64,000 nt of DNA from an uncultured Actinomycetota bacterium. GTDB taxonomy: Bacteria; Actinomycetota; Actinomycetes; JAHEKZ01. Made by a program: the position numbers and the translations under genes. Position 1 is the first letter of the stretch, and every line of letters begins with the position of its first letter. Below, one piece after another: positions 7,580 through 28,977 of the stretch. The stretch covers positions 1,341,225 through 1,405,224 of the forward strand of contig CAVSDB010000001.1 of NCBI GenBank assembly GCA_963726755.1. Direction: 5' to 3'. The notes beneath the pieces are model-generated. The model was not told the DNA's origin. It did not search any database and saw only the letters and a list, made by a program, of their open reading frames with translations.

Positions 7580-8260
7580 TTATTGCTGGCCGAACACCAT
7601 TCCGGCTCCCACGTTCAAGATGACCACCATGCCGCTCCCGTACTGGATTCGGGCGGAGTCCGAGTTCACACCGATCAACTGGAGTGGCCCAGTCTTCGAG
7701 TCGGGGAAGTTGTCTCCAGAAGACACGTCCTGGTCAAGTCCATTGACCTTGAACTTGGCCGTGCCTTTATTGGAGTTCACCGAAACCAACAGGACTTGGT
7801 AGGTGGTCGCTGTGCCCGTGCCGGTTGTGGTGCCGGATTGGGTACCCGTCGATGACGTGTCAGTCGACGTGCCGGTTTGGGTACCAGTTGACGTGTCAGT
7901 TGACGAGGCATCGCCCGTTGGGTCGGCTGGTGTGGTCACCAGTGCTTCAGCCGCAAGCGGCTTGAACGGGTCAACGCCTACCTTGAAGTTGTTCTGAACG
8001 TGCTTGGGGACGTGCTGGCCGTTGTTCCCTTGACCGGTCGCTTGGGTGGGCTGGCCAGTGGGCTGAGAACTCGGGACAGCGCCCAGTTGCTCGTCGGTTC
8101 CTCCCCCAGACAGGAAGAGGAAGTAGGCCGCAGCTCCGACGACGAGAACACCAGCCACAGCGGCGATGATCACCAGCAGTCGGCGGTTGCCTCCCTCGGG
8201 GCCATTGGGCGGACCCGCAATAAAGTCCTCAACAGGGGCTCCCTGCAGTGTGTCAGACAT
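7580..8260 (-). CDS. membrane-anchored pilus-assembly-associated protein (PilP-like candidate)
   Basis: Track ORF, 226 aa. One N-terminal transmembrane helix, a Thr/Gly/Ser-rich linker and a C-terminal beta-rich domain. Last gene of the pilM-pilN-pilO operon. Confidence 0.45.
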   Translation of the reverse strand: MSDTLQGAPVEDFIAGPPNGPEGGNRRLLVIIAAVAGVLVVGAAAYFLFLSGGGTDEQLGAVPSSQPTGQPTQATGQGNNGQHVPKHVQNNFKVGVDPFKPLAAEALVTTPADPTGDASSTDTSTGTQTGTSTDTSSTGTQSGTTTGTGTATTYQVLLVSVNSNKGTAKFKVNGLDQDVSSGDNFPDSKTGPLQLIGVNSDSARIQYGSGMVVILNVGAGMVFGQQ

Positions 8261-8294
8261 GACGCTCCTCGTTCCTACTTCGAAACAGTCGTGG

Positions 8295-9008
8295 TCAGGC
8301 CGCGGGAGCGGCAGTCGTTGAACCGTCAGTGGTCGTCGTGCCGGTCGTGGTGGCTGTCGCCTCCGGCATGAAGAACACCCTGATCTTCAGCGTCGCTTCG
8401 AGCGGGTTACGACCACTGGCGCAGACTCGAGCGTCACACTCGGCGACGGTCATGTCAGTGACGAGCACGTAGCGCTGCATCTTCTCCAGCGAGTTCAGAT
8501 ATCGCTGGATCTGGAAGTAGCCACCGTCCACCACAAGTTCGCTATCCACTGCGGACATCCCGGTGCTCGGCACAGTCGGCGCGACTGGCGGAGTTGTCGT
8601 CGTCCCAGTGGCCGAAGTCGGCGCGGTCGTCGTCGGCGCTAACGGTGCACCAGCGGCGAGCGCGACCGGAGCCGTCGGTGTCATCGAAACGATGAGCACG
8701 TCCGAGTCGTAGCTGTTCGTAGTGAGCGAGCGGACCAGCGGAGGCATGTCCACTTCTTGCGGGATCCGGGACTGCAATTCCGCGAGAAGTGCCTGCTGCT
8801 CAGGAAGGTCCTTCTTCTGGTCCTTGAGCACGTCCGTAGTGGTCTGCAGCGCATCGTTCTTTGCCAACTGTGCGTCGGCTTGCGCCTGCACGTCGGCCGC
8901 GTCAGTCCGCTTGGGCGAGATCAGCAGAAACCAACTACCTGCCAGGAGCGCGATTGCGGCGACTAGGGCGCCCGCGACCCACTTCTGTGCGATGGTCATC
9001 TCACTCAC
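8295..9008 (-). CDS. pilO: type IV pilus assembly protein PilO-like
   Basis: Track ORF, 237 aa. N-terminal transmembrane helix then a coiled-coil region. Directly follows the pilN-like gene with overlapping stop/start. Confidence 0.55.
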   Translation of the reverse strand: MSEMTIAQKWVAGALVAAIALLAGSWFLLISPKRTDAADVQAQADAQLAKNDALQTTTDVLKDQKKDLPEQQALLAELQSRIPQEVDMPPLVRSLTTNSYDSDVLIVSMTPTAPVALAAGAPLAPTTTAPTSATGTTTTPPVAPTVPSTGMSAVDSELVVDGGYFQIQRYLNSLEKMQRYVLVTDMTVAECDARVCASGRNPLEATLKIRVFFMPEATATTTGTTTTDGSTTAAPAA

Positions 9009-9699
9009 CTTCCAGAACTTGCTCGTAGCGATTCGATGCCGCTTCGAGCGATAGCGTTTCGCCTGAGTCCACCGTGTAAACGCGTCCGGCGGTCTCGGTG
9101 CCCGTGTCGAGAACAGCCGACGTCAACGTCGAGGTTCCGTACGAGTCTTGTCCGGTCAAGGAGTTAAGCCAGGTGGCAATGTCCTCGAACTTGTGGACCT
9201 TGCCCTCGAAGGTGACAGTCCCCATCGTTTCCACCGTTGTCGTGTCGACGGTGGTTGTTGGCGCGGTTGTCGTCGCAGCGCCAACCTGAGCGCCAGCCGC
9301 CGTGTTGGTCGCCGACCAACTCACCAGCCGCGAGGTACTCGGGATGGCCAAGCTCATGTCGTTCATGAGATAGGAGAAGCGGATTTCCGGGGTCATCGCA
9401 GTGACGAGTGCGTCCTGGGCACTCTTAACCTGCGCCTGTACCTCGGGAACCTTGGCGTAGCTGTCGACTTGCTGTTGTAGCTGAACGCCTTCGGCTTGTG
9501 CGCTGGTCAGCGAGTCGTTCGCGGTTGACACCTGAGCGTTGGCCCAGGTGAAGAGCAGCCCTACCAGGCCGAGAACGGCCAGTAGCAGCACTCCCAGCAC
9601 AACCTGCAGCTTGCGAAGTCGAGCAGCTTGCTCGATCTCCGGAGGCAGCAAGTTGATGCGCGGTAGTTCGGCAACACGTGCCACGGTCAGAGTCGTCAT
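9001..9699 (-). CDS. pilN: type IV pilus assembly protein PilN-like
   Basis: Track ORF, 232 aa. Conserved LLPPE motif (INLLPPEIEQ) followed by a transmembrane helix. Confidence 0.6.
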   Translation of the reverse strand: MTTLTVARVAELPRINLLPPEIEQAARLRKLQVVLGVLLLAVLGLVGLLFTWANAQVSTANDSLTSAQAEGVQLQQQVDSYAKVPEVQAQVKSAQDALVTAMTPEIRFSYLMNDMSLAIPSTSRLVSWSATNTAAGAQVGAATTTAPTTTVDTTTVETMGTVTFEGKVHKFEDIATWLNSLTGQDSYGTSTLTSAVLDTGTETAGRVYTVDSGETLSLEAASNRYEQVLEGE

Positions 9700-10760
9700 G
9701 ACGCAGCTCCCAATGCGAGGCCAACCGGCACGGCGGCCAGGGGTTCAACGAATTCCAACTGATCGGGCGTCAGCCCGGTCTTGCCGACGACCAGGTCACC
9801 GAAAGCGGTGCCGGCCTCGACCTTGATCCGGGTTGCAGCGTGCAGGCGGTCCACCAAGCCAGTGAGACGCGAACCGCCACCGGTGAGCACGATGCGCTCG
9901 ATGGGTCGTGCGCCAGGAGAAGCGACGTAGTAGTCGAGCGAGCCGCGGACCTGATCCACGAATGTTTGACCTGCCGCGTCCATGACGCGTCCGGCGGCGA
10001 GTTGTTCGGTGTCGCTGGACGCGTCCACCATGCCCAGTTCGTGCTTGAGCGCCTCTGCTTCAGTGGCCGTGACCGCGGTGCGCTCTGCGAGAGCGTCCGT
10101 GACGTCAGCACCACCCATGAGCAGGATGCGAACGAAGCGAGGAACGCCGCCCTCGTGCACCACGATGTTCGTGACGCGCGCGCCGACGTCGACCAACGCT
10201 TCCATCTTGCCGCCCATTCCGAGGTCATCGGTCTCGGCGAGGGAACGAAGGACTGCGAAGGCAGTGAGGTCGACCATTGTCGGCGTGAGACCGGCGCCCT
10301 GTACGGCGTCCAGTTGAGCCTGGACCATGTCGCGCGATGCGGCGATGAGCAAGCCGCGCAACATCTGCGAGCCGTTCTCCGCGCTGAACTCCTCGAGCGG
10401 GTAGAAGTCAAGAAGTGCCTGGTCGACCGGCATCGGGATGGTGTCTTGGACCTGGAAGGCCAAGGAGGCACGAAGCTCATCCATGGGCTGCCAGAGCAGA
10501 TCCACCTGACGGACGATGACCTTTTGGTTAGCAACCCCGACGATCACCTTTTTGCTGGTGAACTTTGTGAGGGTCCACAACTCCTTGATGGCCTCGGTAA
10601 CGGCCTGGGCGTTGATGACCTCACCGTCACGGACTGCGCCGTCCGGCAGGGCCACCTGGCCAAATTTCTCCAGCGTGATGCCAGACTTGCCGAACGCCAG
10701 TTCCGCGGCGCGTACGCCCGAGGTACCGATGTCCAGACCGATGGCGGTTCGTGCAGCCAC
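9696..10760 (-). CDS. pilM: type IV pilus assembly ATPase-fold protein PilM
   Basis: Track ORF, 354 aa. IGLDIGTSGVRAAEL actin-like N-terminus. GTG start with GGGAAAGGGAGA ribosome-binding site. Confidence 0.85.
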   Translation of the reverse strand: MAARTAIGLDIGTSGVRAAELAFGKSGITLEKFGQVALPDGAVRDGEVINAQAVTEAIKELWTLTKFTSKKVIVGVANQKVIVRQVDLLWQPMDELRASLAFQVQDTIPMPVDQALLDFYPLEEFSAENGSQMLRGLLIAASRDMVQAQLDAVQGAGLTPTMVDLTAFAVLRSLAETDDLGMGGKMEALVDVGARVTNIVVHEGGVPRFVRILLMGGADVTDALAERTAVTATEAEALKHELGMVDASSDTEQLAAGRVMDAAGQTFVDQVRGSLDYYVASPGARPIERIVLTGGGSRLTGLVDRLHAATRIKVEAGTAFGDLVVGKTGLTPDQLEFVEPLAAVPVGLALGAAS

Positions 10761-10778
10761 GTCGTCTCCCTTTCCCGA

Positions 10779-10794
10779 GTGGCCCTAGGGCCAC
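10779..10794. promoter_or_regulatory. 16-bp perfect palindrome GTGGCCCTAGGGCCAC just upstream of the pilM ribosome-binding site (candidate operator or pilD terminator stem)
   Basis: Read directly. An adjacent GCCCTTTTGGGC mini-hairpin and CACGTG lie in the pilD-pilM intergenic region. Confidence 0.25.
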
Positions 10795-10955
10795 GTGGGT
10801 GAGCCCTTTTGGGCTATGTCTGATGGGGCATCGGCGCAGAATGACCACCGCTTGAGTCATCACACGCAAGTCGTTCGCGCAAAGTCGCGGACGACTTCGT
10901 CGCACTACGTCGAATGGGTGATACGTCGCAGCGTCGAGGCGCTCAGGGTCGCGCT

Positions 10956-11768
10956 TTAGACACCCAAGAGACCGCGATACCAGTCCCAGATTTCGCTGCC
11001 CCACACAATCGCGATGAGGGCGCCGGCCAACATGAAGGGACCAAATGGGATCTTGGTCTTTCGTCCCGCGCGCTTGAACAGCATGAGAGGGATGCTCACC
11101 AATGCACCCAGTGCGAACCCCAGAAAGCCGCCGATCAACACGAAACTCCAGCCCAGCCAACCGAGGTACAGCCCCAGGACAGCGGCAAGTTTTACGTCGC
11201 CGAGTCCCATGCCCTTTGGATAGATAAGGACGAGGACGAAGTAGAAGGCACAGAGGGCTAGACCGCCGAGCAACGCTCGTAGATACGCGTCCCAGGAGCC
11301 GTCTGCTATCGCTGGTAGTAGCAACAACAGCGCACCAACAACCATCGAGGGATACGTCAGTGCATCAGGCAGTTTGTGGGTGTCGAGGTCGATCACCGCA
11401 AGCGCAACGCCTACCGCGCCCAGGTAGAGGTAGGCGGGAAGTTCCCAGGTGATGCCGATCGAAATCGTCAGCACTACGAAGACAACCGCTGTGAGTAGCT
11501 CGACCGCTGGGTACCGAATGGAGATTGGCTCAGAACAATGGCGGCAGCGACCACGCAAGAGCAGCCAACTCAGTACCGGAACGTTGTCCCTTGCGCCGAT
11601 CTCGGTTCCGCAGCCGGGGCAGCGTGACCGTGGTCGAACCACAGACTCGCCACGCGGCACTCGGTACGCGACGACGTTAAGGAACGAACCGACCAGGAGC
11701 CCGAATATCCCTACGAAGAGCAGCGCGAGATACACCGGACCACCGTAGTGGTCGATCTGACCGGACAC
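10956..11768 (-). CDS. pilD: prepilin peptidase (A24 family)
   Basis: Track ORF, 270 aa. N-terminal CxxC...CxxC zinc motif (CPGCGTEI...CRHCSEPI) plus polytopic membrane domain with GLGDVKL. Confidence 0.85.
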   Translation of the reverse strand: MSGQIDHYGGPVYLALLFVGIFGLLVGSFLNVVAYRVPRGESVVRPRSRCPGCGTEIGARDNVPVLSWLLLRGRCRHCSEPISIRYPAVELLTAVVFVVLTISIGITWELPAYLYLGAVGVALAVIDLDTHKLPDALTYPSMVVGALLLLLPAIADGSWDAYLRALLGGLALCAFYFVLVLIYPKGMGLGDVKLAAVLGLYLGWLGWSFVLIGGFLGFALGALVSIPLMLFKRAGRKTKIPFGPFMLAGALIAIVWGSEIWDWYRGLLGV

Positions 11769-11828
11769 CGTAACTACCGTCAGTGCTTTCAGCGTGTCTC
11801 AGGAGTCGTCAGGACTGATCAGTATCTA

Positions 11829-13474
11829 TCAGTACTGCGGCTTGAGCTCTGCCGTCGTCTTGGCGCCCCACACCGCGTTCGTCCACTGCGGGAAGTACGG
11901 CGGTGCGGAGAACTTCAACCGTGAGTCGTAGCCGTAGTCCTTGAGGTACCCGGTACCGCTGCTGGAGCCAGTACCGACGATGCCACGCCAACGCTGAGCG
12001 ATAGAGCCGCGGACTGACAGCGTTCCCATCTTGGCGCCATCGTCGTAGGACTGGACCCAGAAGCTGTGCTGCAGGGTCTGGATCGAGGCGTAGATCCAGA
12101 TGTCCGACGGCGACTTCAGGTTCGTGCCCCGAGCTGTTCACCGGGTGGGCGACGACCACCGAGTTGGCCGCCACCAGTCCAACCATGTCCGAACCGGTGG
12201 GGTTCGAACCCGATCGGCGTGCTGGCCAGTAGGAGGTCGTCGGTCACGATGATGTTGTTCTGCGCGGCCAGCGTGACCCGACCCTTCACAGTTCCCTCGA
12301 CGTAGAGGTTGCCGTTGCCGCAGTAGAACGTCGTCAGGTCGTTGGCGACGTCGCCAGCCATCGGCAGGCCATCACCGATCTGACCAGTCGTGCACTTAGA
12401 GGTCGTCGATGCGTTCTTGACGTAGACGACGCCCTCGTTCGGCACTGCCACTGTCTGCGGCCAGGCCGCGGACGGGTTACCGCAACCGGTGCCAACAACG
12501 GTGCCGGCGCTCTTGGTGCTCCAGACCGTCATGGTGCCGTTGCTGTTGAACTTGATCCGGGTGTCGCCGGTGTACTGGCAACCGGGGAAAGTGGAGAACT
12601 GGGCGCTGTTGTCGGGTAGGTAGAGCAGCGGGGCGTACTTCGCGGTGGTGCCGTTGAGGTTCGGCGTACCGCTTCCGCGCTTGCAGTTGTTGATGTTGTA
12701 CGGAGTGTTGGCGCACGTCGAGGCGGACGTCTCGTAGCCCTTCATGAACTTGACCGAGCCACCCATCAACGGCGTGTCGTTGAAGTGCACAGCTCCATCG
12801 AGTACGTCACCTGTGGCGAACTGGATTTCGACGCAGCCACGCGAAGAGTTCTGCCAGTAGTACTTGGCTTTCGTCGGTCCGCTCTTTCCGCAGGCGTCCG
12901 AAGGCGCACCCGAGGGGTAGGCCTGCTGGTTCGCCGGGTCGGCGTCCTCGAAGTCGGTGTAGTACAGGAAGTCAGTCGATCCACCACGTGACACCAGAAC
13001 CTGAATGGTGCGTGAGTGACCATTGACGCGACCGGTTGAGGTCACCCGGATCACGCCCTGGCTGAAGATGGTGCTGGGGTCGACGTCGTAGTGGAACGCT
13101 CCAGCTGCCGGGTTACCGGGCTGCAGATTCTGCCAGCCAACTGCCGTTGCCGTCGTCCAGCCGCAACTGTTCGTGCCGGCCTTCGGACCCTTAAGCGCGT
13201 TGTTGGTGCAGTCAACGGTCGTCCAGTACGAGTCGTTCTGGTTCAGTCGCGCGATGTAGTCGTCAATACCCGACTGCGCTGCGGCCAACGACGCGTTCCA
13301 GTCTTGGTCGGCGCGTGAACTGGTCTGCGCCTGCTGCGCAACCATGTACGCAGAGGTCATAAGCATGCCGAGAATCAGTGTGGCAGCCATCACCATGATG
13401 AGGGCGATGCCCTCTTCTGGGTGAGATGAACCCAGGCGGCGAGTGAAGAAACGGAACATGGTGACTCCTGTCAC
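11829..13474 (-). pseudogene. large pilus-associated protein (minor pilin/tip adhesin-like, PilX/PilY-type candidate); C-terminus split over 3 frames
   Basis: Track ORF 12116..13474 (452 aa, hydrophobic pseudopilin-like N-terminus GIALIMVMAATLILGML) continues in ORFs 11809..12186 and 11829..12029 in other frames. Confidence 0.45.
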
Positions 13475-14187
13475 GGACTCGACGAGGGCTGCGGGACGGC
13501 ATCTGCGTTCGGGAGGGAAACTCTGGTGGTGTACGAGGTGGGCGGAACTCCGTTGAGGGTGGAGGTCTGGACCGACACGTAGACATCGACACTGTCGACG
13601 GACGCGAGATCAGCAGCTGATAGGGGTCCGCCTGTTCCCAGTTTCACGCCGTCTTTGTTGTAGTACGTAAACAAGTCCGTCGTAGCAAGAACACCGGTCG
13701 CAAGCCTGCGGGTGTTGACTACGCAGCCACCGGTGCCAGGCGTGCAGTACTGGTAGTTGTAGTCCGTGGGTGCGTGAGCATTGGGCGGCTGGATCGTCTC
13801 CCACAACTCGCCATTTGTTCTACGTTCATATGTCACACGGCTCGGTCCAACGCTGTTCGAGTCGTTGTTGACGTTCGCGTAGAACTGCACCTTGCTTGGC
13901 TCAGCCTTCAAGAACGCAGCCAAGTCACACCCGGTGCACGTACCGTTCAACTGCGAAGGCAGCACAGCCGTACGAAGGTTGCGCGAGATCGCCTCCATGG
14001 AGAGGCGTCCTTGCTGGCTCTGGTCGGCGCGCGTGATGTTTGCAGTCGTCGTGCGCTGCGCCATGATCAGCGTTCCCTGAACCGCAGCCATCACGACGCC
14101 CAGGATGAACACCGCCACGAGAATTTCGACCAAGGTGAAGCCGCGGTCTGTCTCGTTGTCCCTCAACCGCTTCTGAATCCATCGCAT
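13471..14187 (-). CDS. minor pilin with prepilin-type N-terminal cleavage/methylation domain (PilV/PilW-like)
   Basis: Track ORF 13471..14292 trimmed to Met of MRWIQKRLRDNETDRGFTLVEILVAVFILGV. The GFTLVE motif marks a class III signal peptide. Start overlaps the upstream stop (TGATG). Confidence 0.7.
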   Translation of the reverse strand: MRWIQKRLRDNETDRGFTLVEILVAVFILGVVMAAVQGTLIMAQRTTTANITRADQSQQGRLSMEAISRNLRTAVLPSQLNGTCTGCDLAAFLKAEPSKVQFYANVNNDSNSVGPSRVTYERRTNGELWETIQPPNAHAPTDYNYQYCTPGTGGCVVNTRRLATGVLATTDLFTYYNKDGVKLGTGGPLSAADLASVDSVDVYVSVQTSTLNGVPPTSYTTRVSLPNADAVPQPSSSP

Positions 14188-15539
14188 CACAGAGTCACCA
14201 CCGAAAGTGCCGTTACGCCGGAGGTCGGGAGCAAGCTCGCCGTGGTTGGCCACGAACCCGACGGGCTCTTGCCGGTGACTTTGATCTGCCATTTACCGGC
14301 CGGAAGTGAGGCATTCAGAACACCCGAGGCGTTCGTCGTACCCACCGTGATCGGGTTTTCTGTCGTGCCACAGGTCGTCGTGGTCACCGGAGTGGCGGTG
14401 ACGACCGCATTCGGCACGGCGACACCGAGTGTGTTCTTCACCGTCAGCGCCATCGGGGCCAGACGAGTAGTCGTTGTCCCGGTTCCCGCTGGGGCGATGA
14501 TGATCGCTGGTGAACGTGTGCCGCCGGCCGTTGCTGGGTCGGACTGTGCGCATGAGCCGGCCCACAGGCTGTAGCCGTCGGTGAATGGCCACAGCGAGTT
14601 CACGGTTGTCGTCGCGCTGCTGGTCGTTACGACGCGAGTTCCGGTCGGCTGTAGCCCGGTGTTGGCAAGGGTCAAGGCTGGCCACGAAGCTGGTAGCGAG
14701 TATCCGCCCTCAGTGATGTACGTGACTGCCAGTGTCGCGGCCTTGTCGTAGTTAATGGTGACCTGCGACAGAGTTCCAGCGGTAACGACCACTGACTTAT
14801 CTGGTGTTTGGTCGCCATAGAAGTCCACGTAGCCCGGTTCGTTCATCGATGCCGTGTACGTACCGGGAGTGGACAGCGCGAACACCGCGCAACCGTCGAC
14901 GGCTGTGGTGTCGCTGAACGTGCCTGCGGGTCCAGTGATCGAGACCGTACGGTTCTTGCTCGGCAGGCCAGCTGCATCCAGGACCTTGACGCCGACGAAT
15001 GACAGCGTTGACGACAGCACACCCTTCGGTGGCGTCAGCACTGTGTTGGACGTCGACGGGAGGAACCGTGCCCATGTTGGGCCACGAAACCTCGACGTTC
15101 ACGGCAAGCGTTGGGTAGGTAATGGCTGCGCCACCGTCGCAACTGCTTTGACCGGTTCCGGCTGGCAGCCACTCGACATTGCGCTTGACCGTGTACGGAA
15201 TCGCCGTCCACCTTCAGGTCGGCACCGGCGCTCTGGCCAGGCAACGGATGTGGGTTCAGCACGAAGTTGGCGGCCGCCAACGCACCGGGCGCCGTCAACG
15301 ACGAGTTGAACTCATTGCGCGTGATTTCCAACTCGCGCGATGCGAGATTGGCCGCAGCTACCCGGTTCTTGTCCAGGCGCGTGGTCTTCATCGCGGCTGC
15401 CAAGCCCCATAACAATGGCGCTGGCGACGATCGAGAAAATCACCATCGCGACTACCAGCTCGATAAGCGTGAGTCCCCCCTCACCATCAAGCTGAGCACG
15501 ACGGCGAAAAGAGAGAAGATTCGGCCATGACCTCTGCAT
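14187..15539 (-). pseudogene. large pilin-like protein (FimT/PilX-like) with prepilin N-terminus; at least 3 frameshifts
   Basis: N-terminus in ORF 15312..15602 (GGLTLIELVVAMVIFSIVAS), middle in ORF 15035..15415, then a third frame (WTAIPYTVKRNVEWLPAGTGQSSCDGG...), and C-terminus in ORF 14187..15041. Traced by hand. Confidence 0.5.
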
Positions 15540-15663: not shown

Positions 15664-16077
15664 TCAGTTGTTCACGCAAACGCCGCCGGCAGCCTGGAGG
15701 CCACCGTCGTTGCTGTCGTAGATCCAGTTGGCCTGCGAACCAGGCTGCGCACCGGCGATACGAGTGATGGTCACGCAGTAAGACGAACCGATGGTCGAAA
15801 CGGCCACCGCTGCGTTGTTACCTGGCGAAAGCTTGACTGCAGCAGGAACCGCAGCCGGGTAGGTCTGAGTGTCAGTGAACGCAGTTTCCATCTCGTTGGC
15901 CACCGCGCGAGCGTCAGCCTTCATCGATGCGTCAACAGCCTTCTGACGCTGGTTCAAGAACACCGGGATAGCAATAGCAGCAAGAATACCGATGATGATA
16001 ACGACGACCAGGAGCTCGATGAGGGTGAAGCCTTCCTCATTCTCGTCCATGGCCTTACGGATGCGAGCGAGCATCAT
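15664..16077 (-). CDS. pilA: type IV major pilin PilA, copy 1
   Basis: Track ORF 15664..16128 trimmed to the MM start with GAAGGGA ribosome-binding site. MMLARIRKAMDENEEGFTLIELLVVVIIIGILAAIAIPVF is a canonical type IVa prepilin leader plus N-methyl-Phe helix. Confidence 0.85.
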   Translation of the reverse strand: MMLARIRKAMDENEEGFTLIELLVVVIIIGILAAIAIPVFLNQRQKAVDASMKADARAVANEMETAFTDTQTYPAAVPAAVKLSPGNNAAVAVSTIGSSYCVTITRIAGAQPGSQANWIYDSNDGGLQAAGGVCVNN

Positions 16078-16317
16078 TTGTCCCTTCAGGACGTAACGGT
16101 GAGCCGTACGGCGCTCGCCCTGGACCACCCCTAAGGGCTGACCGAGGTAGCTGGGCTAACCACATGGGTCCCCTGGCTTTGCGAACCCGCCTCACGACGG
16201 GAGTGCCTTGTCTGGCCGGTTGGCTCTTTACAAGTACTGTTTCGACCCCCCACATACCCGTCTTGAGCCACGATGATCACAGACTTCACCGGCGAGTTCC
16301 ACCGCTGACAACAAGCA

Positions 16318-16395: not shown

Positions 16396-16809
16396 TCAGT
16401 TGTTCACGCAGACCCCGCCGGCAGCCTGGAGGCCACCGTCGTTGCTGTCGTAGATCCAGTTGGCCTGCGAACCAGGCTGCGCACCGGCGATACGAGTGAT
16501 GGTCACGCAGTAAGACGAACCGATCGTCGAAACGGCCACCACTGCCTTGTTACCTGGCGAAAGCTTGACCGCAGCAGGAACCGCAGCCGGGTAGGTCTGA
16601 GTGTCAGTGAACGCAGTTTCCATCTCGTTGGCCACCGCGCGAGCGTCAGCCTTCATCGATGCGTCAACAGCCTTCTGACGCTGGTTCAAGAACACCGGGA
16701 TAGCAATAGCAGCAAGAATACCGATGATGATAACGACGACCAGGAGCTCGATGAGGGTGAAGCCTTCCTCATTCTCGTCCATGGCCTTGCGGATGCGAGC
16801 GAGCATCAT
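16396..16809 (-). CDS. pilA: type IV major pilin PilA, copy 2 (one amino-acid difference from copy 1)
   Basis: Track ORF 16396..16860. Identical 154-aa translation except SPGNNAAVAV vs SPGNKAVVAV. Confidence 0.85.
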   Translation of the reverse strand: MMLARIRKAMDENEEGFTLIELLVVVIIIGILAAIAIPVFLNQRQKAVDASMKADARAVANEMETAFTDTQTYPAAVPAAVKLSPGNKAVVAVSTIGSSYCVTITRIAGAQPGSQANWIYDSNDGGLQAAGGVCVNN

Positions 16810-17270
16810 TTGTCCCTTCAGGACGTAACGGTGAGCCGTACGGCGCTCGCCCTGGACCACCCCTAAGGGCTGACCGAGGTAGCTGGGCTAACCACTGGGT
16901 CCCCTGGCTTTGCGAACCCGCCTCACGACGGGAGTGCCTTGTCTGGCCGGTTGGCTCTTTACAAGTACTGTTTCGACCCCCCACATACCCGTCTTGAGCC
17001 ACGATGATCACGACTTGGCATCACACCCAGACGGCCCAACGTCCAGTGGCGCCTTCAAGAGCCGGCGTGCTCTGCGCGCTCCTTGATCCCATGGAACGTC
17101 CCGCGAGCCATGACAGATCGGCGGGGATGATGGCCATGAGCTGCGCAGCGAGTTCGTGTGGGGATCCACCTCACGACGGTGAAGAAGGCAGTCCCGGCCC
17201 AAATGGCTTCGGGGCTGGTGTCGATGGTGATCGCAGGGTTAGTCGCGACCTGCGGACAGGCTTCCCCTGA

Positions 17271-17694
17271 CTAGCTCTCGATCATGCTTGGGCGAAACCT
17301 CCGACCTGACACTGCATCGACCTCGACACGCACAAAGACCGGCTTAGGGCCTCGTTGCCAGGCGATGACCGGCAGACTCAAAACTGTCAAGTATTTCGTG
17401 AACGTTCGTCAGGGAACGAGCTCGTCCCTTGAGCACGACGCTCCACGCCTCGCCGGATTCTTGGTCCACTCCGTCAACCTCGAAGGCGACGCGGTGCCCA
17501 TCTGCCGCGTTGAGTTTGGTCCCGAGCGCTGTTCGGAACATCACCGTGCCGTGGTCGACCAGATGGTTGACCGGGAAGATCTCTGGCTGCTCGTCCAAGA
17601 CCACTGCCAGCCGCCCCACTTGCGCACTTCGGACTAGATCCCAACAGGTGTTATCTCGAAGCACCTCGATCGCATCGGTTCCGTCTTGTTGCAT
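17271..17694 (-). pseudogene. pyridoxamine 5'-phosphate oxidase family / F420-dependent-like small enzyme; C-terminus frameshifted near 17345
   Basis: Track ORF 17344..17694 (116 aa PPOX-like). The expected C-terminus PVFVRVEVDAVSGRRFRPSMIES* is in another frame immediately downstream. Confidence 0.5.
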
Positions 17695-17805
17695 GTCTGA
17701 CCTCCCATCGACCGTTCACCGGTTCCACCTTGGGCCGAGCGGCGGTGCCTTACCCGGGCAAGAAGTCCCGATGTTTTGCTTTCGCCCCTCCCCTAGGGTG
17801 AATTC

Positions 17806-19428
17806 GTGGATCCTGGCTCCGAGCGGATAGCGCGACTACTGGACGCCGTGCTCGCGGTCAGTTCCGATCTCGATCTGTCCCAGGTGCTGTCCCGAATCGT
17901 CCAATCTGCCTGCGATCTGGTCGACGCGAGGTATGGCGCCCTTGGTGTGCTCGCTCCGGAAGGTGAACACCTGGTCGAGTTTGTGACCCAGGGACTCTCC
18001 GACGCGAACGGCGGGCTATTGGCGACCTGCCGCACGGGCGAGGAATTCTCGGATTGCTGATCCGTGACCCTCAACCGCGACGCGTCCGCGACATCGCGAC
18101 GCATCCGGCCTCCTACGGTTTCCCGCCAAACCATCCGCCTATGCACAGCTTCCTGGGGGCGCCCATCGCCATCCGCGGAAGAGGTGTTCGGCAACCTCTA
18201 TCTGGCCAACAAGCAAGACGCACGTGGAGTTCAGCGCAAGACGATCAGGAAGTCGTCGTCGCGTTGGCCGCGGCTGCTGGCGTCGCCATCGACAACGCGC
18301 GCCTGTACGACCGATCGCGCCGGCAACGCGAACTCGCTGACGCGCTTGCCGAGATGACGCAGCATCTTCTGGAAGGCATGGAAACCGACGCGGCCCTTCG
18401 CTTGATGGCCCGGCGCAGCGCTGAGATGGCGGTTGCCGAGCTCGCCGTCGTGGCGCTGTATGACGAAGGTGGTCGACTTACCGTCCGCGCGACCAACGAC
18501 GAACGACCCTCGCATGGTGTTGGCCTTGAACTTGACCCCGACTTTCGATGGAGCGAGTTGGTCGCACGCCGGTTGCCATATCTCATTTCCGAACCCGACC
18601 AAGACTCGAACACCGAGCTGGCTGAAATCCGACAACTGGGTTCACTGGATCCCGACGGTCCCACAGCGATCGTCGCCATCGCAGTCGGTGACGCCGAGCT
18701 CGGGGTGCTTGGCGTCGCATGGAACTCTGACCAAGACGTTGCCGCCCGTCAGTCACTCGACTCTTTACACACCTTTGGGCGAACGGCTGCGCTAGCCCTC
18801 GAGGCAGCAACTGCTCAACGTGAGCGTGGGCGGGTAGCACTTCTTGAGGATCGAGACCGAATCGCTCGAGACATGCATGACCACGTGATTCAACGGCTGT
18901 TCGCCACCGGACTGTCGTTGCAGTCGACCAGGCTGATGACGTCGGATGACGCGGTGTGCCAGCGACTCGACGAGGCCGTGGACGCGATTGACGTGGCGAT
19001 CAAAGACATTCGAGAGGCGATCTTCGCGTTGCATCGTCCGATCGGAGGTCTTGGTGTTCAGGCCGAAGTCGACGAACTTGTCCGCCACGCCGGCCGCACG
19101 CTGGGGTACAACCCAGAGGTCAGCACGAGTGGATCGTGGGGCTCTCTGCCGTTCGGAGATAGAGCCGGAGTTGTTGGCAGTCGTCCGCGAGGCCCTGTCG
19201 AACGTCGTTCGCCACGCTCAGGCGAGCTGGTGTCGAGTGTCGGTCCACGTGACCGATTCGGTTGTGAGAGTCGAGGTGGAAGACGACGGAATGGGGATTC
19301 CCAAGGACGCTGAGTTGAGCGGACTCAGGAATCTCGAGCGACGAGCTGCCCGGCTCGAACGGCAGCCTGCAGTTGGCCGCTCGCCATCCAACGGGAACCG
19401 TCCTCATGTGGCAGGTGCCGGTCAAGTA
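17806..19428 (+). pseudogene. GAF-GAF-HisKA_3-HATPase sensor histidine kinase (DevS/DosT-like); at least 5 frameshifts
   Basis: ORFs 17806..18060, 18054..19313, 18064..18357 (GEEVFGNLYLANKQDARG GAF signature) and 18946..19524 (HATPase: LAVVREALSNVVRHA...VEVEDDGMGIP). HisKA_3 RDRIARDMHDHVIQRLFATGLSL. The true C-terminus LAARHPTGTVLMWQVPVK* is in yet another frame. Confidence 0.7.
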
Positions 19429-19435
19429 GGGCAGG

Positions 19436-20078
19436 TCAAGAGTCAGGTTGCTGTTGGTGGGTTACCGCAAACACCGCAGCCTGCGTTCGACGCTGCATGC
19501 CGAGCTTTCCCAGTATCGACGTGACGTAGTTCTTGACCGTCTTCTCGGCCAGCGACATCGATTCGCCGATTTGCGCGTTCGTCTGTCCGTCGGCAATGTG
19601 TTGCAGAATTCGTCGCTCCTGCGGAGTTAGCGCTGACAGTCGAGGATCTGTTCGAGTGTCGCCCCAGCGGTCGCGGATCTGCGCGCGACGCGCTTCGTCG
19701 ATCAGTGACTCACCGGCCGCCACCTTGCGTATCGAGTCGACCAGAGTGTTTCCCTTGACGTCCTTAAGTACGTACCCGGCAGCACCGGCGCGATCGCGCT
19801 TGACCAGCGCCTGCTCGTCGTCGTACGACGTCACGATGAGCGCTGCGATGCTGGGATCAACGGAACGAATGTCTCGACAGGTATCGATGCCCGACCCATC
19901 GGGCAGCCGCGCATCCAACAGCGCGACATCGGGACGAAGCGCCGGAATCCTGCGAGTTGCTTCGAGAGCCGAACCCGGACTCTCCGACCACTTCGATGTC
20001 GTCCTCGCGCTCGAACAACTCTCGGAGCCCGCGTCGGACGATCTCGTGATCGTCGAGAATGAACACCCGAATCGTCAT
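19436..20078 (-). pseudogene. NarL/LuxR-family response regulator (DevR-like); one frameshift near 19950
   Basis: Receiver N-terminus in ORF 19857..20078 (MTIRVFILDDHEIVRRGLRELFERED). Rest, including the HTH (LTPQERRILQHIADGQTNAQIGESMSLAEKTVKNYVTSILGKLG), in ORF 19436..19918. Confidence 0.75.
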
Positions 20079-20172
20079 CGTCGTCCGTCAACCCCAATCG
20101 TCTTGGCAGTCGAACGATAGTGGCCTCTCAGACTATGACGCGACCGACGGACTATCGGCAATACTCCCGTCA

Positions 20173-21395
20173 CTACTTGATGAGGTCGAAGACCTTGAAG
20201 ATGGGCATGTACAGGGCGATGATCATGCTTCCGACGAGACCACCGAGCACTGCGATCATCAGTGGCTCGATCAGCGCAGTCAGCGACTCCGTGGTCGACT
20301 CGACTTCTTGGTCGTAGAACTCACTGATCTTCTCGAGCATGGCGTCCAGCGCACCGGTGTCTTCACCGACCGCCAGCATCTGCACGACCATGGGCGGGAA
20401 GATCGCGTGGTGGGTGAGTGGTTCGGTGAGCGACTCACCATTGCGGACGCTGTCCTGGACGTCGCGAACAGCTCGTGCCACCACGACGTTGCCCGACGTG
20501 TCGGCAACGATGTCGAGGCTCTGCAGGATCGGGACACCGGCGTGGAGCATGGTGCCGAAGTTGCGAGTGAAGCGGCTGAGCGCAATCTTCTGGAACAGCG
20601 GGCCGAAGACCGGGATCTTCAACTTGATGGGGTCAAGGACGTTACGTACTTGCTCCTTGTGCTTGATCTTCTTCCAGATGATCACGAAGGCGATAAGGCC
20701 AATGGCGATAGGGATGAAGCCCATCTTCAACAGATCGCTCAACTTGACCAGCAGCAGCGTGGGAGCAGGCAGTTGCGCGCCAAGACCTTCGAACATCTTG
20801 GCGAAGATCGGCACGATGAACAGCAACATGCCGGTCACCGCGAGAAGCGCCATCACGAACACCACAACCGGGTAAGTCATGGCGCTCTTAATCTTGCCCT
20901 TGAGGCGTACTTCCTCTTCATAGTTCGCCGCAATACGAAGCAGCACACCGTCCAAGAATCCGCCGACCTCACCGGCTCGAACCATGTTCACCATGAGCGG
21001 TGGGAAGACTGCCGGGTGTTCGGCCGAGCGCGCCGGAGAGCGCGTTACCGTTTTCCACGCTGTTGCGGACCTCGCCCAGGACTCCTGCCAAGCGTCTTGT
21101 TGGGAGTCTGCTCCGAGAGAATGTTGAGGGCACGCATGAGCGACAGACCGGCACCGATCATGGTGGCGAACTGTCGCGACATGACCGCGATGTCCTTGAG
21201 CTTGACCGAACCGCCGAATCCGGGGATCTTCAGTTCGGTCTTCATCCCAGCTTTGTGCTCGGTGATGGTGACCGTCGCGTAGCCCAGGCTTGACAGTTTT
21301 TGTGCCACCGCGCCCTGGGACTCGGCCTCGATCGTCCCCGTGACGATCTTGCCCGCCTTGTCCCGGACCTGGTACTGGTACATCGTCGTTCCCAT
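20173..21395 (-). pseudogene. pilC: type IV pilus platform protein PilC (GspF family); 2 frameshifts
   Basis: N-terminus in ORF 21045..21395, a short middle piece in ORF 20969..21154 (LAGVLGEVRNSVENG), C-terminal two-thirds in ORF 20173..20994. Confidence 0.8.
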
Positions 21396-21415: not shown

Positions 21416-22472
21416 TCAGCCGCGGCCGGTCAGGCGGTTGAAGTCTTCGATGTGATGAGACTTCTCAGCACCGGTTTCGTACGTGATGCGACCCTTGTTC
21501 ACCAGGTCCGCGAGGTGCTGGTCCATCGTCTGCATGCCGTACTTGGTGCCGGCCTGCATGGAGCTGTAGATCTGGTGAGTCTTGCCTTCACGAATCAGGT
21601 TCCGGATGGCTGGAGTTGCCACCATGACCTCGCAGGCCACAACGCGGCCCTTGCCGTCTGCCGTGCGAGCCAAGGTCTGGCAGACGACACCCTGGATGGC
21701 GGTCGCCAACTGAGCGCGCACCTGCTGCTGCTGGTGCGGGGGGAAGACGTCGATGACACGGTCGATGGTCTGCGCCGCGTCCTGGGTGTGCAGGGTCGCG
21801 TAGACGAGGTGACCAGTTTCAGCCGCAGTTAGCGCAACAGAGATGGTCTCGAGGTCACGCATTTCACCGACCAGGATGATGTCGGGGTCCTGACGCAGCA
21901 CGTGCTTGAGCGCGTTCTGGAAGGACTTGGTGTCCTCCCCCACTTCGCGCTGGTTGACCAGACACGACTGGTGGCGGTGCAAGAACTCAATCGGGTCCTC
22001 ACACGTCATGATGTGGTCTTTGCGGTTTCGGTTCGCCATATCCACCAAGTGAGGCCAGGGTCGTGGACTTGCCCGATCCAGTTGGTCCGGTGACCAGCAC
22101 GAAACCTCGCGGGAGCATCGAGAAGTTGGCAACCGACTTGGGAACCCCCAAGTCCTCGAGCCGCTTGATTTCGAACGGAATGATTCGGAAGGCAGCGCCG
22201 ACCGCGTCCCGCTGCCGATACATGTTGACTCGGAATCGAGCCCGACCTGGGACTGAGTAGGCGAAGTCAAGTTCGAAGACTTCTTCGAAGATCTCTCGTT
22301 GGCGCTGGGTGATCGCCGCGTACATCACGCGCTGGATGACCGGCGGAGTCAGGACCGGGTACTCATCCATCTGGAGTGAGTTCACCGTTGACGCGAATCG
22401 CGGGACGTGCCCCAGCCGTCAGGTGAAGGTCGGACGCGCCTCGCTCGAGCATGGCGAGCAGCAGGTCGACCA
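21416..22472 (-). pseudogene. pilT: twitching-motility retraction ATPase PilT; at least 2 frameshifts
   Basis: N-terminus (..DLLLAMLERGASDLHLTAGARPAIRVNGEL) found by hand at ~22380-22470, then ORF 21999..22385 (Walker A LVTGPTGSGKSTTLASL), then ORF 21416..22270 (IEFLHRHQSCLVNQREVGEDTKSF...). Confidence 0.8.
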
Positions 22473-23266: not shown

Positions 23267-23279
23267 CCCTTGAGTCCCC

Positions 23280-24977
23280 TCACGAAGAACTAGTCCGCCA
23301 ATAGCCAGCTAGACCACGACGCGCAGGATCTCGTCGAGTGAGGTGACACCCTGCAGCACCTTGGACAGGCCGTCCTCGCGCAGCGTGACCATGCCTTCTT
23401 CGCGGGCCGCGACGGTGATGGCTGCCGACGAAGCGCGTTCGACCGCCAGCCGCTCGATGTTCTCCGAGACGGCCATCACCTCGTGCAGGGCCAGTCGGCC
23501 CTTGTAGCCGGTCTTGGAGCAGGCCGGACACCCGATGGGCCGATACAGCGTCGGCAGCGGCGTGCCCTTGCTCCCACGGGAACCGCGCGGCAACCATGGC
23601 CTCAGCGGTCGGCTCGTAGGCTTCCTTGCACTTCTTGCAGAGTCGACGGGCCAGGCGCTGGGCGAGCACACCGTCCACCGCCGATCCGACAAGGAACGGC
23701 TCCAGACCCATTTCCGTCAAGCGGGTGATGGCCGAGGGGGCGTCGTTGGTGTGCAACGTGGAGAGCACCAGGTGGCCGGTCAGGGCCGCCTCAACGGCGA
23801 TCTGGGCCGTCTCGTGGTCACGAATCTCACCGATGAGCACGATGTCGGGGTCGCATCGAAGGATCGAGCGAAGTGCCGCGGCGAACGACAGTCCAGCTTT
23901 GACGTTCGTCTGCACCTGGTTGATGCCAGCGAGTCGGTACTCAACCGGGTCCTCGACGGTGATGACGTTGACCTCAGGACGAGCGATCTGGTTCAGCGTG
24001 CCGTACAGCGTCGTGGACTTGCCAGAACCCGTTGGTCCGGTGACCAGGATCATCCCGTAGGGCTTGGTGAAACTCGACGAGTAGATCTCGTAGTTGTGGT
24101 CTGAGAACCCGAGGTCAGTCAGCGCCATCGCGGCCTGCGAGTTGTCCAGGATTCGCATGACGACCTTCTCGCCCCACACCGTTGGAAGGGTGGCGACACG
24201 AAGGTCGATCTTCTTGCCGTTGTAGTTGACCGACAAGCGGCCGTCCTGCGGTACCCGTCGTTCAGCAATGTTGATGTCCGACATGATTTTCAGTCGGCTG
24301 ATAACACCGGACTGGATGTTCTTGGGCGACTTCATCACCTGGTGCAGGACACCATCGATGCGGTACCGGACGACGAGCGAGTGCTCGCCTGGCTCGAGGT
24401 GAATATCCGATGCGCGGTCCTGAATTGCCTGCGTAATAAGCAAGTTCACGTACTTGACGATGGGGGCGTCTTCGACGACCTCTTTGACCGACGAGAGGTC
24501 TTCGTCGTCGGCGTCGTTGTCAAGAACCGCCGTGAGGTCATCGAGGTCGGAGTCAGCGCGGTAGTACCGGTCAATGGCCGAGAGAACATCCGCTCGAGTA
24601 GCGACCACTGGCTTGACGTCATAGCCAGTGATCGATCGAACGTCGTCGATCGCGAAGACGTTCGCTGGGTCAGCCATCGCCAGCAGGAGCTTGCCCTCGT
24701 CGTCGACGCGGAGCGGCATCACGCTGTACTTGCGACAGATCTCGCCCTTGACCCGGCCGACGATGCTGCCGTCAACGGGATAGTCGGCCAGGTCGACAAA
24801 CTCAAGTCGAATCTGCTGCGCCAATGCCGCCACGAGCTGGGACTCGGTGAGGAAGCCTCGATCGACCAGAATGCGGCCGAGTGCCTTGCCTTCGGTCTTG
24901 TGCATCTGGAACGCCTCGGCGAGCTGGTCTGCCGTAACCAGGCCGCTCGAAATCAAGATGTCGCCCAGTTGCGTCAC
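23280..24977 (-). pseudogene. pilB: type IV pilus assembly ATPase PilB (GspE family); C-terminal frameshift near 23600
   Basis: Track ORF 23280..24977 carries the N1 domain, Walker A VTGPTGSGKSTTLY and the CKKC zinc motif. The true C-terminus (YRPIGCPACSKTGYKGRLALHEVM...LDEILRVVV) is in ORF 23309..23692. Confidence 0.85.
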
Positions 24978-25319
24978 AGTCCCCGCCTCCCCGGGTGCGT
25001 CTTAGCGCACCGTCGTCTCAGACCACCCACAACCAAGTCGAGTGGCCTCTACTCCCATTCGGCCATTGCCGGGTTGTGCTGAAGGGAATGGGAGCTACTG
25101 CCGTCGACGAAAGCCCCTGAGAACGGGTCCGTCTGGATGAGCGCGTCCGCCAGCGCTACAAACGGTCGAGCTGGCGCCTCTGCGACGTCCCATAGCAGCG
25201 TGCTCCCGTCGCCAAAGACCAGACCGACGTGGCGCGAAGCCGTCGGGATCGCGACGGAAACTGCGCCACGATTCCGGTGCCGCCCTACTCTGGGGCAGGA
25301 ACCGCCAAGCCATCGGTGC

Positions 25320-25895
25320 CTACACGCTGGCCGGAGTGGCTTCGACCTCGTCGAGGACCGAGTAGAGCAGCGCGAGCAGCACTGACTTCACCGACTCCTT
25401 GTCGGTCGCGTCGCAGGGCACCATAGGCACCGCTGGACTGATCCCAAGGGCCTGCCGGATCCTGGCTTCCTCGACCTCGTCGACGCCTTCAGTGCGGTTC
25501 AGCGCGACAACGAAAGGCACTCGGGCCATCTTTCGGAACGCGGCCAGAATGCCAACCGCCTCCTGCAATGAGTCCGAGCGGGTGACGTCCAGCAACAGGA
25601 TGTACCCGAGCATGCCCTCACCCAGGATTTCCCACATGAAGTCGAAACGTTCCTGACCAGGGGTGCCGAACAGATACAGCACCAGTTCGCGATCAATGGT
25701 GATGCGACCGAAGTCCATCGCCACGGTGGTTTCGTTCTTCCGCGACTTGGTGTGGTCGGTGATCCCTCTCTCAGTTGAGAGCACGGTGATCTCACTGATC
25801 GTGCGAATCAGCGTGGTCTTACCAGCCGAGAACGGTCCGGTGATAACGACCTTGACGGCCTGACCACCGTGACGTCGACGCTTGTTGTTGGCCAT
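25320..25895 (-). CDS. small Ras-like GTPase (MglA/CvnD-type 'ATP/GTP-binding protein')
   Basis: Track ORF, 191 aa. P-loop GPFSAGKTT, TTVAMDFGRI, LYLFGTPGQERF (G3) and ALNRTEG (NKxD-like). Start 4 nt after the upstream stop. Confidence 0.75.
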   Translation of the reverse strand: MANNKRRRHGGQAVKVVITGPFSAGKTTLIRTISEITVLSTERGITDHTKSRKNETTVAMDFGRITIDRELVLYLFGTPGQERFDFMWEILGEGMLGYILLLDVTRSDSLQEAVGILAAFRKMARVPFVVALNRTEGVDEVEEARIRQALGISPAVPMVPCDATDKESVKSVLLALLYSVLDEVEATPASV

Positions 25896-25899
25896 GGCT

Positions 25900-27159
25900 T
25901 CAGAGCCCCCGCACGCCGGCGATGAGTCGCAGCATCAGACTGCGATTGACCGTGGGATCACGCTCGATGGCTGCTTCCCCGACGGGTTGTACCGCCGCGG
26001 CAGCCCCGCCCGATGCGGTGGCAGACACCACCGAAGAGGCCTGGGGAGCGACGGGGGCAGCCGGTGGCGCCGGGGGGGCTGGAGCGGCAGGTGACGCAAA
26101 ACTGCTCCGAGCCGGTTCCGGGTGGTCGATAGCACGTTTGGGCATGAACGGTTCGGGTCGCGGCGGAACCACATTGAGCGGATCGTGGGCTCCACCGAGG
26201 AGACCGGGGGCAGCTTGAGCAGCCGCTGGCGCCACAGCAGGTTGCTCAACGGGCGCTGGCTGAGCCGGCACCGCGGGTGTTGACGGGATCTCGGGGAGCA
26301 TGTGAGATTCGGCCGCCAACCCTGGAACCGGTGGGGCTGAGACTTGCGGTTCGGGGGGTGCGCTGGCTGGCGCCAGTGTTTCAGTGGAAGTGGTCGGGGT
26401 GATTTCAAGCGGACCCAGAAGTTGCTGACGTCGCTGAACCAACTCGATGTGATCAGGTGCTTCCTCGTCACGAATGACGAGCATCCCCCGCTGAACTAAG
26501 GCGGTCAGCGTTGCGACCACAGCGAACTGACTTGCTCCAGAAATTTCAACAATGTCGCCAACTGACCGCTGACCGTCGACCAAGGCCAGCAGCGACCATT
26601 CGTCTCGAGTAAGGCTCTGATCACCGGTAACCACGACGGGCATGGTGAGCAGCACGTCTGGCGAAGGAATGACCTTGGATACCGCATCCCAGTTTTCGCG
26701 GCGGGCAGTGGCCTCAGACACCACGTGCTCTGACGAAACCGCGAGCCCGACATCGTCTGGGTTGTCCTCGCCGACGCCGAAGGCAAAGTCCCCCTCGACC
26801 CATCGCAGCAGGTCGAAGACGGAATCGATTGCCTGCTCGAGGGCAAGCTGCTGGATCAGTTCGCCGTTGACTGCCCCGGATTCGAGGAGGGCACGGGCAA
26901 CACCGACACCCTCAGTTGTCGCTCGCTCAACGGCCCGTCGCAATGCTGCGTCGTCGCAGGCGCCAATGCCGACGAGACGACGTGCCAGGGACTGACGTGC
27001 GGCGTTGGAGCACGCACCGGTGACCACTCCGGCGTTGAAGTAGACGACGCCGGTGGCCTGGCCGTTGGCCAGGTGCAACCCCCCGGACTTCTTCGTCAGG
27101 CTCAGCAGCTGGAAGACATCCGGAAGGCTGAAGGCGTCAAGCGAACCTTCGAGCTTCAC
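25900..27159 (-). CDS. PATAN (DUF4388) domain protein with Pro/Ala-rich C-terminal half
   Basis: Track ORF, 419 aa. N-terminus MKLEGSLDAFSLPDVFQLLSLTKKSGGLHL is the PATAN/DUF4388 signature. Second PATAN-like stretch DEWSLLALVDGQRSVGDIVE. Confidence 0.65.
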   Translation of the reverse strand: MKLEGSLDAFSLPDVFQLLSLTKKSGGLHLANGQATGVVYFNAGVVTGACSNAARQSLARRLVGIGACDDAALRRAVERATTEGVGVARALLESGAVNGELIQQLALEQAIDSVFDLLRWVEGDFAFGVGEDNPDDVGLAVSSEHVVSEATARRENWDAVSKVIPSPDVLLTMPVVVTGDQSLTRDEWSLLALVDGQRSVGDIVEISGASQFAVVATLTALVQRGMLVIRDEEAPDHIELVQRRQQLLGPLEITPTTSTETLAPASAPPEPQVSAPPVPGLAAESHMLPEIPSTPAVPAQPAPVEQPAVAPAAAQAAPGLLGGAHDPLNVVPPRPEPFMPKRAIDHPEPARSSFASPAAPAPPAPPAAPVAPQASSVVSATASGGAAAAVQPVGEAAIERDPTVNRSLMLRLIAGVRGL

Positions 27160-27186
27160 GTGTGTTCTCGTTCCTCGTCGTGGTGG

Positions 27187-28008
27187 TTAGTTCCAGGAGC
27201 CGTTCTCTGGAGCGACTGACGAGCCTGCTGCCGCCACCGTTGTGCCGTTCGAGTTCGATCGATCATCACGCTCGGCACGGCCATTCCAGGCACCCGTCCC
27301 GTTCGCTACTGGCGCCGGGAGGTACGAGGTGTCATCAGGCTCAGCCAACTGCGCGACCGGCTGCACCTGGTGCACCGGCTCGGGCTGTTCCTGCTGTTCC
27401 TGATGTTCTGGCTGCTCTTGCTGGTCGACGAGGCTGTGTTCTGCCAGCAACGGAATGGTCTCCTGGGGGGCTTCCTCGACCGGCTCCAGGGTGGGCATCA
27501 CCGGGGCGATGACCGCCAGTACTGGCTCTGCGACGGTTTCGGGAGCGGCTTCTTCAGGCACTGGAGCCACGGCGACCAGCGGTGGCTGAGTCGACTCGTG
27601 CTCGACGCGAAGGCTATTCGCGACTGCTTCGGCTGCCTGCTTGACCTCGAACAGCATCAGGCCGACCTTGGCGCCGCGGCGTCCGACTGCGACCAGTACG
27701 GCCTCGTCGTCGGCGCTGACCAAGAAGACCGTCCCGTTGTCACCCTCGACGTAGACCTGGGAAAGCTCCCCGCGGCCTAGTCCTTGGGCCGCCCGCTCGC
27801 CCAGTGAGAGCAGCGCCGCCGACATCGCGGCTACCCGGTCTTCGTCCATACCCGCGGGTAGGGCCGAGGCCATGGGTAGGCCGTCGAACGACACCACCGA
27901 TGCGGCCTCAAGATCGGGGGCTTGTCTGAGCAACGTGGCGAGCACGTGGTCGAGCTGGGCCGATCGGTTGCTCGCCCCGGCTGTTGCACCGGCGTATGGG
28001 TCGGACAT
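27187..28008 (-). CDS. Roadblock/LC7 (MglB-like) domain protein with Gln/Glu-rich C-terminal tail
   Basis: Track ORF 27187..28032 trimmed to Met of MSDPYAG with GAGAGG ribosome-binding site. LDHVLATLLRQAPDLEAASVVSFDGLPMAS...GTVFLVSADDEAVLVAV is typical Roadblock/LC7. Confidence 0.65.
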   Translation of the reverse strand: MSDPYAGATAGASNRSAQLDHVLATLLRQAPDLEAASVVSFDGLPMASALPAGMDEDRVAAMSAALLSLGERAAQGLGRGELSQVYVEGDNGTVFLVSADDEAVLVAVGRRGAKVGLMLFEVKQAAEAVANSLRVEHESTQPPLVAVAPVPEEAAPETVAEPVLAVIAPVMPTLEPVEEAPQETIPLLAEHSLVDQQEQPEHQEQQEQPEPVHQVQPVAQLAEPDDTSYLPAPVANGTGAWNGRAERDDRSNSNGTTVAAAGSSVAPENGSWN

Positions 28009-28117
28009 AGTGCACCTCTCGCACGGAACCACTCAACAGAACGCACTCAAGAGAACGTCCCCGTCGACTTCAAAAGGCGTCCGTCCGCGACGGTGCCTGG
28101 GATGTGCTTCGGCGCTG

Positions 28118-28977
28118 TTACTGCTCCCCTTGAGCGATCCCGCGTTCTCGCAATGCCTGTAAACCGGCCAACCGCAGGATGTCCGGGTCCACTTCGAGAC
28201 CGGTCATCAACCGCACCTGTTCGACCGCCTGGAAGACCAGCATCTCAAGTCCCCCAGTCACCAGCCCGCCAGCCTTTTGCCACAGTCGCGCCAACGGAGA
28301 TGGCCAGGGGTCGTAGACCACGTCGACCAAGTGTCCGGGCGAACCTGGGACGTCGTCGAGGGCTAGCGGCTGGGCGTCCACGGGCAGCGTCGAGACGACT
28401 ACGGGGACCGCAATTTCCTGCGCTAACGGTGGCCAGGATCCGGTCGCAGCCGCTAATCCGAATTCTTGGGCCAGCGCCACCAATTCGGCGACGGCTGCGG
28501 AGCTGCGGGCACAGATCGTCACCGGGCCAGAATTGACCTCGGCCAGCGCGGCCACAGCTGACCGGGCCGTGGCACCAGATCCAAGGATCGTCGCTGGCGA
28601 CGCAGCGGTCGAAGCCGATGTGACGAAGCACCTCGGCCAGTCCGTAGACGTCGGTGTTCCAGCCGCGCGACCCCGCCTTACTGAAAATGACGGTGTTGAC
28701 GGATCTGAGCGCTTCGGCTCGTGAGTCGATGGAGCTCAGCAGCGGTATGACCGCTTCCTTGAGCGGCATCGTCAGCGACAGACCTACCCACCCCGCGTTC
28801 GGCGCGTCGACGATGGCCTCTGAAGAAATCGGGTAGTTGTTCGCGCGAAACGTCGACGGCTTCGTAGCTCCAGTTCAGACCGAGGTGCTCGTAGGCGGCG
28901 CGATGCAGTGCCGGTGACAACGAGTGGCTGACCGGGTGACCGAGGACAGCGGCACGTCGAGCTGCGGACGATGCCAT
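28118..28977 (-). pseudogene. aroE: shikimate 5-dehydrogenase; 2 frameshifts
   Basis: ORFs 28678..28977 (N-terminus AAVLGHPVSHSLSPALHRAAY), 28245..28769 (middle SVNTVIFSKAGSRGWNTDVYG) and 28118..28555 (C-terminus), in three frames. Confidence 0.7.

Follow-up and report, generated by a model that had tools for sequence, protein, structure and literature searches.

Gene content of the locus between aroE and aroC

The 64,000-nucleotide stretch of DNA analysed here (the window) carries a type IV pilus (T4P) gene cluster between aroE and aroC. The initial annotation extended it to position 28977, which takes in aroE itself; the cluster proper occupies 7580-28032. The features are listed below with the supporting profiles and their E-values.

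6317-7495, minus strand: aroC, the downstream flank (Pfam)
7523-7564, minus strand: intrinsic terminator closing the cluster (dG -40.3 kcal/mol, z -4.6)
7580-8260, minus strand: bitopic protein, PilP/GspC-HR-like (predicted fold)
8295-9008, minus strand: pilO (Pfam PilO 1.5e-6, T2SSM_b 1.9e-5)
9001-9699, minus strand: probable pilN (position and homology chain)
9696-10760, minus strand: pilM (Pfam PilM_2 1.2e-46)
10956-11768, minus strand: pilD, prepilin peptidase (Pfam A24_N_bact 9e-37, Peptidase_A24 7.7e-14)
11829-13474, minus strand: large PilX_N-like minor pilin or tip protein (EEG/IALIMVM and a hydrophobic helix at the N-terminus)
13471-14190, minus strand: minor pilin (N_methyl 6e-8, TIGR02532; signal RG/FTLVEILV)
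14187-15530, minus strand: minor pilin with Ig-like (CarboxypepD_reg/MG4-like) domains (CarboxypepD_reg 2.5e-5), frameshifted
15664-16077, minus strand: pilA copy 1, tandem duplicate of copy 2
16143-16217, minus strand: c-di-GMP-I riboswitch aptamer 5' of pilA copy 1 (RF01051, 42.4 bits)
16396-16809, minus strand: pilA copy 2, major type IVa pilin (Pfam N_methyl 1.2e-7)
16875-16948, minus strand: c-di-GMP-I riboswitch aptamer 5' of pilA copy 2 (RF01051, 42.5 bits, full model)
17344-20087, mixed strands: window-specific insert of about 3 kb, comprising the next three genes (Pfam)
17344-17694, minus strand: Pyridox_ox_2 gene (Pfam)
about 17750-19524, plus strand: GAF-GAF-HisKA_3-HATPase_c kinase, fragmented (Pfam)
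19436-20087, minus strand: NarL/LuxR response regulator, frameshifted (Pfam)
20173-21395, minus strand: pilC, platform protein (Pfam T2SSF 1.2e-46)
21416 to about 23170, minus strand: pilT, retraction ATPase (Pfam T2SSE; TIGR01420)
23309-24977, minus strand: pilB, extension ATPase with N-terminal MshEN (Pfam T2SSE 3.9e-120, MshEN 6e-23)
25320-25895, minus strand: Ras-superfamily small GTPase, ATP_bind_1/MglA-CvnD-like (ATP_bind_1 4e-20, Ras 1e-7, TIGR00231)
25900-27159, minus strand: PATAN (DUF4388/PatA_N) domain protein (DUF4388 8.8e-22)
27187-28032, minus strand: Roadblock/LC7 protein resembling CvnB/MglB, opening the cluster (Robl_LC7 2.7e-17)
28118-28977, minus strand: aroE, shikimate dehydrogenase, the upstream flank outside the cluster (Shikimate_dh_N, SDH_C)

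The full T4P gene set that had been proposed is represented by PilB, PilT, PilC, PilD, PilM, PilN, PilO, a PilP-like protein, pilins and minor pilins, but becomes complete only after conceptual repair of frameshifts. The T2SSE match of PilB covers profile positions 3-288, with the remainder (295-370) recovered in another frame at 23309-23716; the orthologues in relatives are 554-556 residues long. A 209-residue C-terminal fragment of PilT scores 311 bits against TIGR01420. This protein is preceded by a previously overlooked N-terminal extension of about 190 residues, which is disordered, acidic and proline-rich; its motifs are kept in four relatives (L081-L084), and in L036 there is an open reading frame at this place without clear motifs. 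The frames of pilC were recovered by three-frame tblastn against PilC of L036. PilN has no Pfam match of its own; it is 33% identical to PilN of L036 (tblastn E 9e-16), and its orthologues match PF05137 weakly. The product of 7580-8260 combines a transmembrane helix, an invariant DPFxPL motif, a Thr/Gly-rich linker and a C-terminal beta-domain, and appears to be structurally PilP/GspC-HR-like: its predicted fold matches that of the PilP/GspC HR domain with Foldseek E-values of only 0.03-0.25, and no sequence-level match supports the PilP-like identity.

As the initial annotation had stated, the interval contains two major pilins and three minor-pilin or adhesin genes, the latter lying between 11829 and 15530. 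The two PilA copies are spaced by about 732 nt, share 98.5% protein identity and both bear the G/FTLIELLVV signal (slashes mark the leader junction); the leader of copy 2 reads MMLARIRKAMDENEEG/FTLIELLVV, and a strong hairpin (z -8.2) lies 3' of this copy. The minor pilin with Ig-like domains has a class III signal, GG/LTLIELVV, at about 15476. The largest minor pilin shows neither a Pfam nor a family-level match of its own; it has a frameshift near 12130 and positional counterparts of 459-509 residues in relatives. No Secretin domain was recovered in those open reading frames of the interval that were scanned with Pfam, in agreement with the earlier statement that a secretin is absent.

The genes are not all on one strand as had been claimed, given the plus-strand kinase. 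The insert that carries it is without equivalent in any of six compared relatives, and in the gene tables of 7/7 relatives the pilin genes directly follow pilC (in L087 pilC is fused to a pilin by a miscall). The LuxR-type response regulator, the Pyridox_ox_2 gene and the Roadblock/PATAN/GTPase trio went unmentioned in the initial annotation.

The terminator it had placed at the end of the cluster is indeed a strong hairpin with a U-rich tail (UUUUCU), ending about 27 nt before the ATG of aroC (7495), and L036 and L053 have similar hairpins at this junction. Likewise, Pfam matches bear out the succession of aroC by aroK, aroB, aroQ, pepQ, efp and nusB. The description of this neighborhood as Mycobacterium-like does not stand: the best 80 aroC loci, in which aroC is 71-77% identical, are mainly from Streptomyces/Kitasatospora, with Nocardioides, Actinomadura and others, and include no Mycobacterium.

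Frame disruptions and the nature of the pilus apparatus

Frame disruptions affect pilT (about five, among them one-base insertions near 22375 and 22046), pilC (two, single-base insertions at about 21089 and 21029), pilB (one, near 23540), aroE (two, at about 28860 and 28600, splitting Shikimate_dh_N over two frames with SDH_C in a third) and the response regulator (one); frameshifts also break up the kinase gene and two of the minor-pilin genes. Single-base insertions account for nearly all of these disruptions, which lie outside long homopolymers. This position, together with a density of at least 16 disruptions in 21 kb of the cluster versus about 10 in 35 kb elsewhere in the window, makes real decay of some genes conceivable, and the lesions in pilB, pilT, pilC and the minor pilins might be read as genuine pseudogenising mutations in a non-functional relic. 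We consider such a relic improbable: comparable +1 disruptions in aroE, hisS (two), secD and ruvA/C would be intolerable to a cell, neither in-frame nonsense mutations nor large deletions were seen, and PilT is still 87-90% identical to the intact orthologues of relatives. A tRNA methyltransferase and a permease elsewhere in the window are frameshifted as well, and loci from other long-read metagenome-assembled genomes (MAGs; L081, L087) are similarly fragmented, with split alaS, yceG and pilB and fused genes. Since hisS, secD and ruvA are also struck, the frameshifts of the cluster are most likely long-read assembly errors, and their nearly uniform direction points to a systematic error.

The major pilin N-terminus also matches the GspG and ComGC models, which, along with the missing secretin, might suggest a non-retractile competence pseudopilus or a T2SS-like apparatus instead of a true type IVa pilus (T4aP). 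This is very unlikely, as PilM/N/O together with a genuine PilT/PilU-family ATPase are T4aP-specific by published criteria (PMC6916266), PilB matches T2SSE with an MshEN domain, no ComGA/ComGB-only architecture is present, and the 137-residue pilin has a globular domain with two Cys residues. As this PilT is a genuine member of its family, the earlier suggestion of retractile pili is reasonable, contingent on the pilT frameshifts being sequence errors. In a functional T4aP, PilD would process the class III leaders carried by PilA and the three minor pilins, and assembly on the PilC platform would be driven by PilB with its MshEN N-domain. The platform would be held by a PilM-PilN-PilO subcomplex with the bitopic PilP/GspC-HR-like protein as a fifth member, and the filament would be retracted by PilT; a secretin would be dispensable if the cell is monoderm.

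Inheritance of the locus

The available relatives are all uncultured MAGs, with the aroE-to-pilA side visible in seven (L081-L084, L086-L088) and the pilD-to-aroC side in two (L036, L053). The order aroE-Roadblock-PATAN-GTPase-pilB-pilT-pilC-pilA is present in 7/7 of the former, and L036 and L053 show the pilD/M/N/O-aroC order. Across the seven, PilB is 77-85% and the flanking alaS 56-76% identical to the proteins of the window, and flank and cluster proteins diverge proportionally: L081 and L084 have alaS at 74-76%, PilB at 84%, PilT at 90%, PilC at 82% and the GTPase at 85%, and L082 and L083 have alaS at 56-62%, PilB at 77-78% and the GTPase at 72%.

The cluster had been viewed equally as an insertion into the aro locus or as a lineage-specific retention; the evidence favors retention and gives insertion no support. 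Horizontal acquisition of a pilus island would fit the observation that aroE adjoins aroC without pil genes in most actinobacteria recovered with aroC (e.g. Streptomyces, Kitasatospora, Arthrobacter), that T4P systems in single loci are often transferred (PMC6668835), and that the tetranucleotide similarity of the cluster is slightly lower (r = 0.944 versus 0.965 elsewhere). However, all nine cluster-bearing relatives have it at the identical position, the divergence of flanks and cluster is proportional, and neither an integrase, an adjacent tRNA, att-like sequences nor flanking direct repeats were detected in or around the cluster. GC content is flat, with GC3 at 0.75 in the cluster versus 0.71 elsewhere, and it is at the Thr/Ser-rich minor pilins that the tetranucleotide score is lowest. 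Moreover, Nocardioides, Kribbella and Geodermatophilaceae have a lone A24 peptidase at the same aroE-aroC site, and the presence of either this gene or nothing in distant actinobacteria fits loss rather than gain. In Proteobacteria aroK and aroB flank pilMNOPQ (PMC7545093; PMC5542475), as in the hofMNOPQ-aroK-aroB order of E. coli, which is mirrored here by pilM-N-O-P(like) followed by aroC-aroK-aroB. Insertion is hence improbable, and in the recent past largely refuted. We regard the cluster, with good confidence, as a chromosomal T4aP locus that an uncultured Actinomycetes lineage has inherited vertically in the ancestral pilMNO(P)-aro position; by analogy of synteny, this position might be ancestral even beyond this clade.

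Regulatory elements and comparison with known systems

Both pilA aptamers, overlooked earlier, score above the RF01051 gathering threshold of 35 bits, and orthologues of the pilA aptamer are present in 7/7 relatives, i.e. 8/8 genomes. This c-di-GMP-I riboswitch in the pilA leader would set pilin supply. As no U-tract terminator follows the aptamer, control is probably translational, and may be of either ON or OFF sense.

The likewise overlooked trio at 25320-28032, upstream of pilB, is equally conserved: the Roadblock gene is at the same position in the gene tables of 6/7 relatives (in L084 it is uncalled, yet found by tblastn at 82%), PatA_N orthologues occupy the same place in relatives, and the GTPase retains at least 78% identity across the best 120 database matches listed. 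The nearest solved chains to the Roadblock protein are 7f8m, 9jue and CvnB5 (3leq), its match to MglB being weak; MglA is likewise only a weak match to the GTPase (E 0.006), and the two proteins resemble the CvnD/CvnB type as much as MglA/MglB. In the PATAN protein no receiver domain was detected. In Synechocystis PATAN binds PilB1 and PilC (bioRxiv 10.1101/2021.06.11.447907), and PATAN genes have MglA-family genes nearby (PMC4316618). Encoded directly 5' of pilB, the trio probably acts as a switch or localisation factor for the PilB/PilC motor, its presumptive target.

These modules have parallels in other systems. As with the MglA/MglB and PATAN regulators of Myxococcus, Thermus and Synechocystis (PixE/PatA), T4P is tied to a PATAN protein together with a Ras-like GTPase and a Roadblock protein; however, the module is here encoded within the pil locus, its Roadblock protein is nearer to CvnB-type chains than to MglB, and its PATAN protein shows no receiver domain. 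Its pairing of a CvnB-like Roadblock protein with an ATP_bind_1 GTPase of CvnD-like type within a single operon is shared with the actinobacterial conservon (CvnA-D; PMC4316618), but there is neither a CvnA histidine kinase nor CvnC (DUF742), the PATAN protein takes the middle place and the operon runs on into pilB. Similarly, the pilA1 leader of C. difficile carries a c-di-GMP riboswitch (Cdi-2-4), giving another Gram-positive T4P locus with a c-di-GMP-sensing aptamer in its major-pilin leader; that aptamer is of class II (PMC6366702), whereas the one described here is of class I (GEMM-I, RF01051) and, as noted, has no U-tract terminator behind it.

The system as a whole is of a known kind, with a modestly new accessory set. 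Like the monoderm T4aP loci of Streptococcus sanguinis, Clostridium perfringens and C. difficile, it unites PilB/C/D/M/N/O/T, a major pilin and several minor pilins in a single locus without a secretin (PMC6916266). It departs from them in the PilP/GspC-HR-fold protein following PilO, S. sanguinis being reported without PilP and the absence of PilP in monoderms having been termed 'logical' (PMC6916266), and also in the in-operon Roadblock/PATAN/GTPase trio, the disordered PilT extension and the Actinomycetes host; the experimentally studied Actinomycetes pili discussed in the same work are Tad/Tfpc. Like the proteobacterial pilMNOPQ-aroK-aroB loci (E. coli hofMNOPQ), it has pilM-N-O-P on one strand with shikimate-pathway genes directly after; in contrast to them, it lacks PilQ, has aroC before aroK-aroB, encodes a bitopic P-like protein of GspC-like topology rather than a lipoprotein, and brings pilB/T/C/D and the pilins, scattered in Proteobacteria, into one locus.

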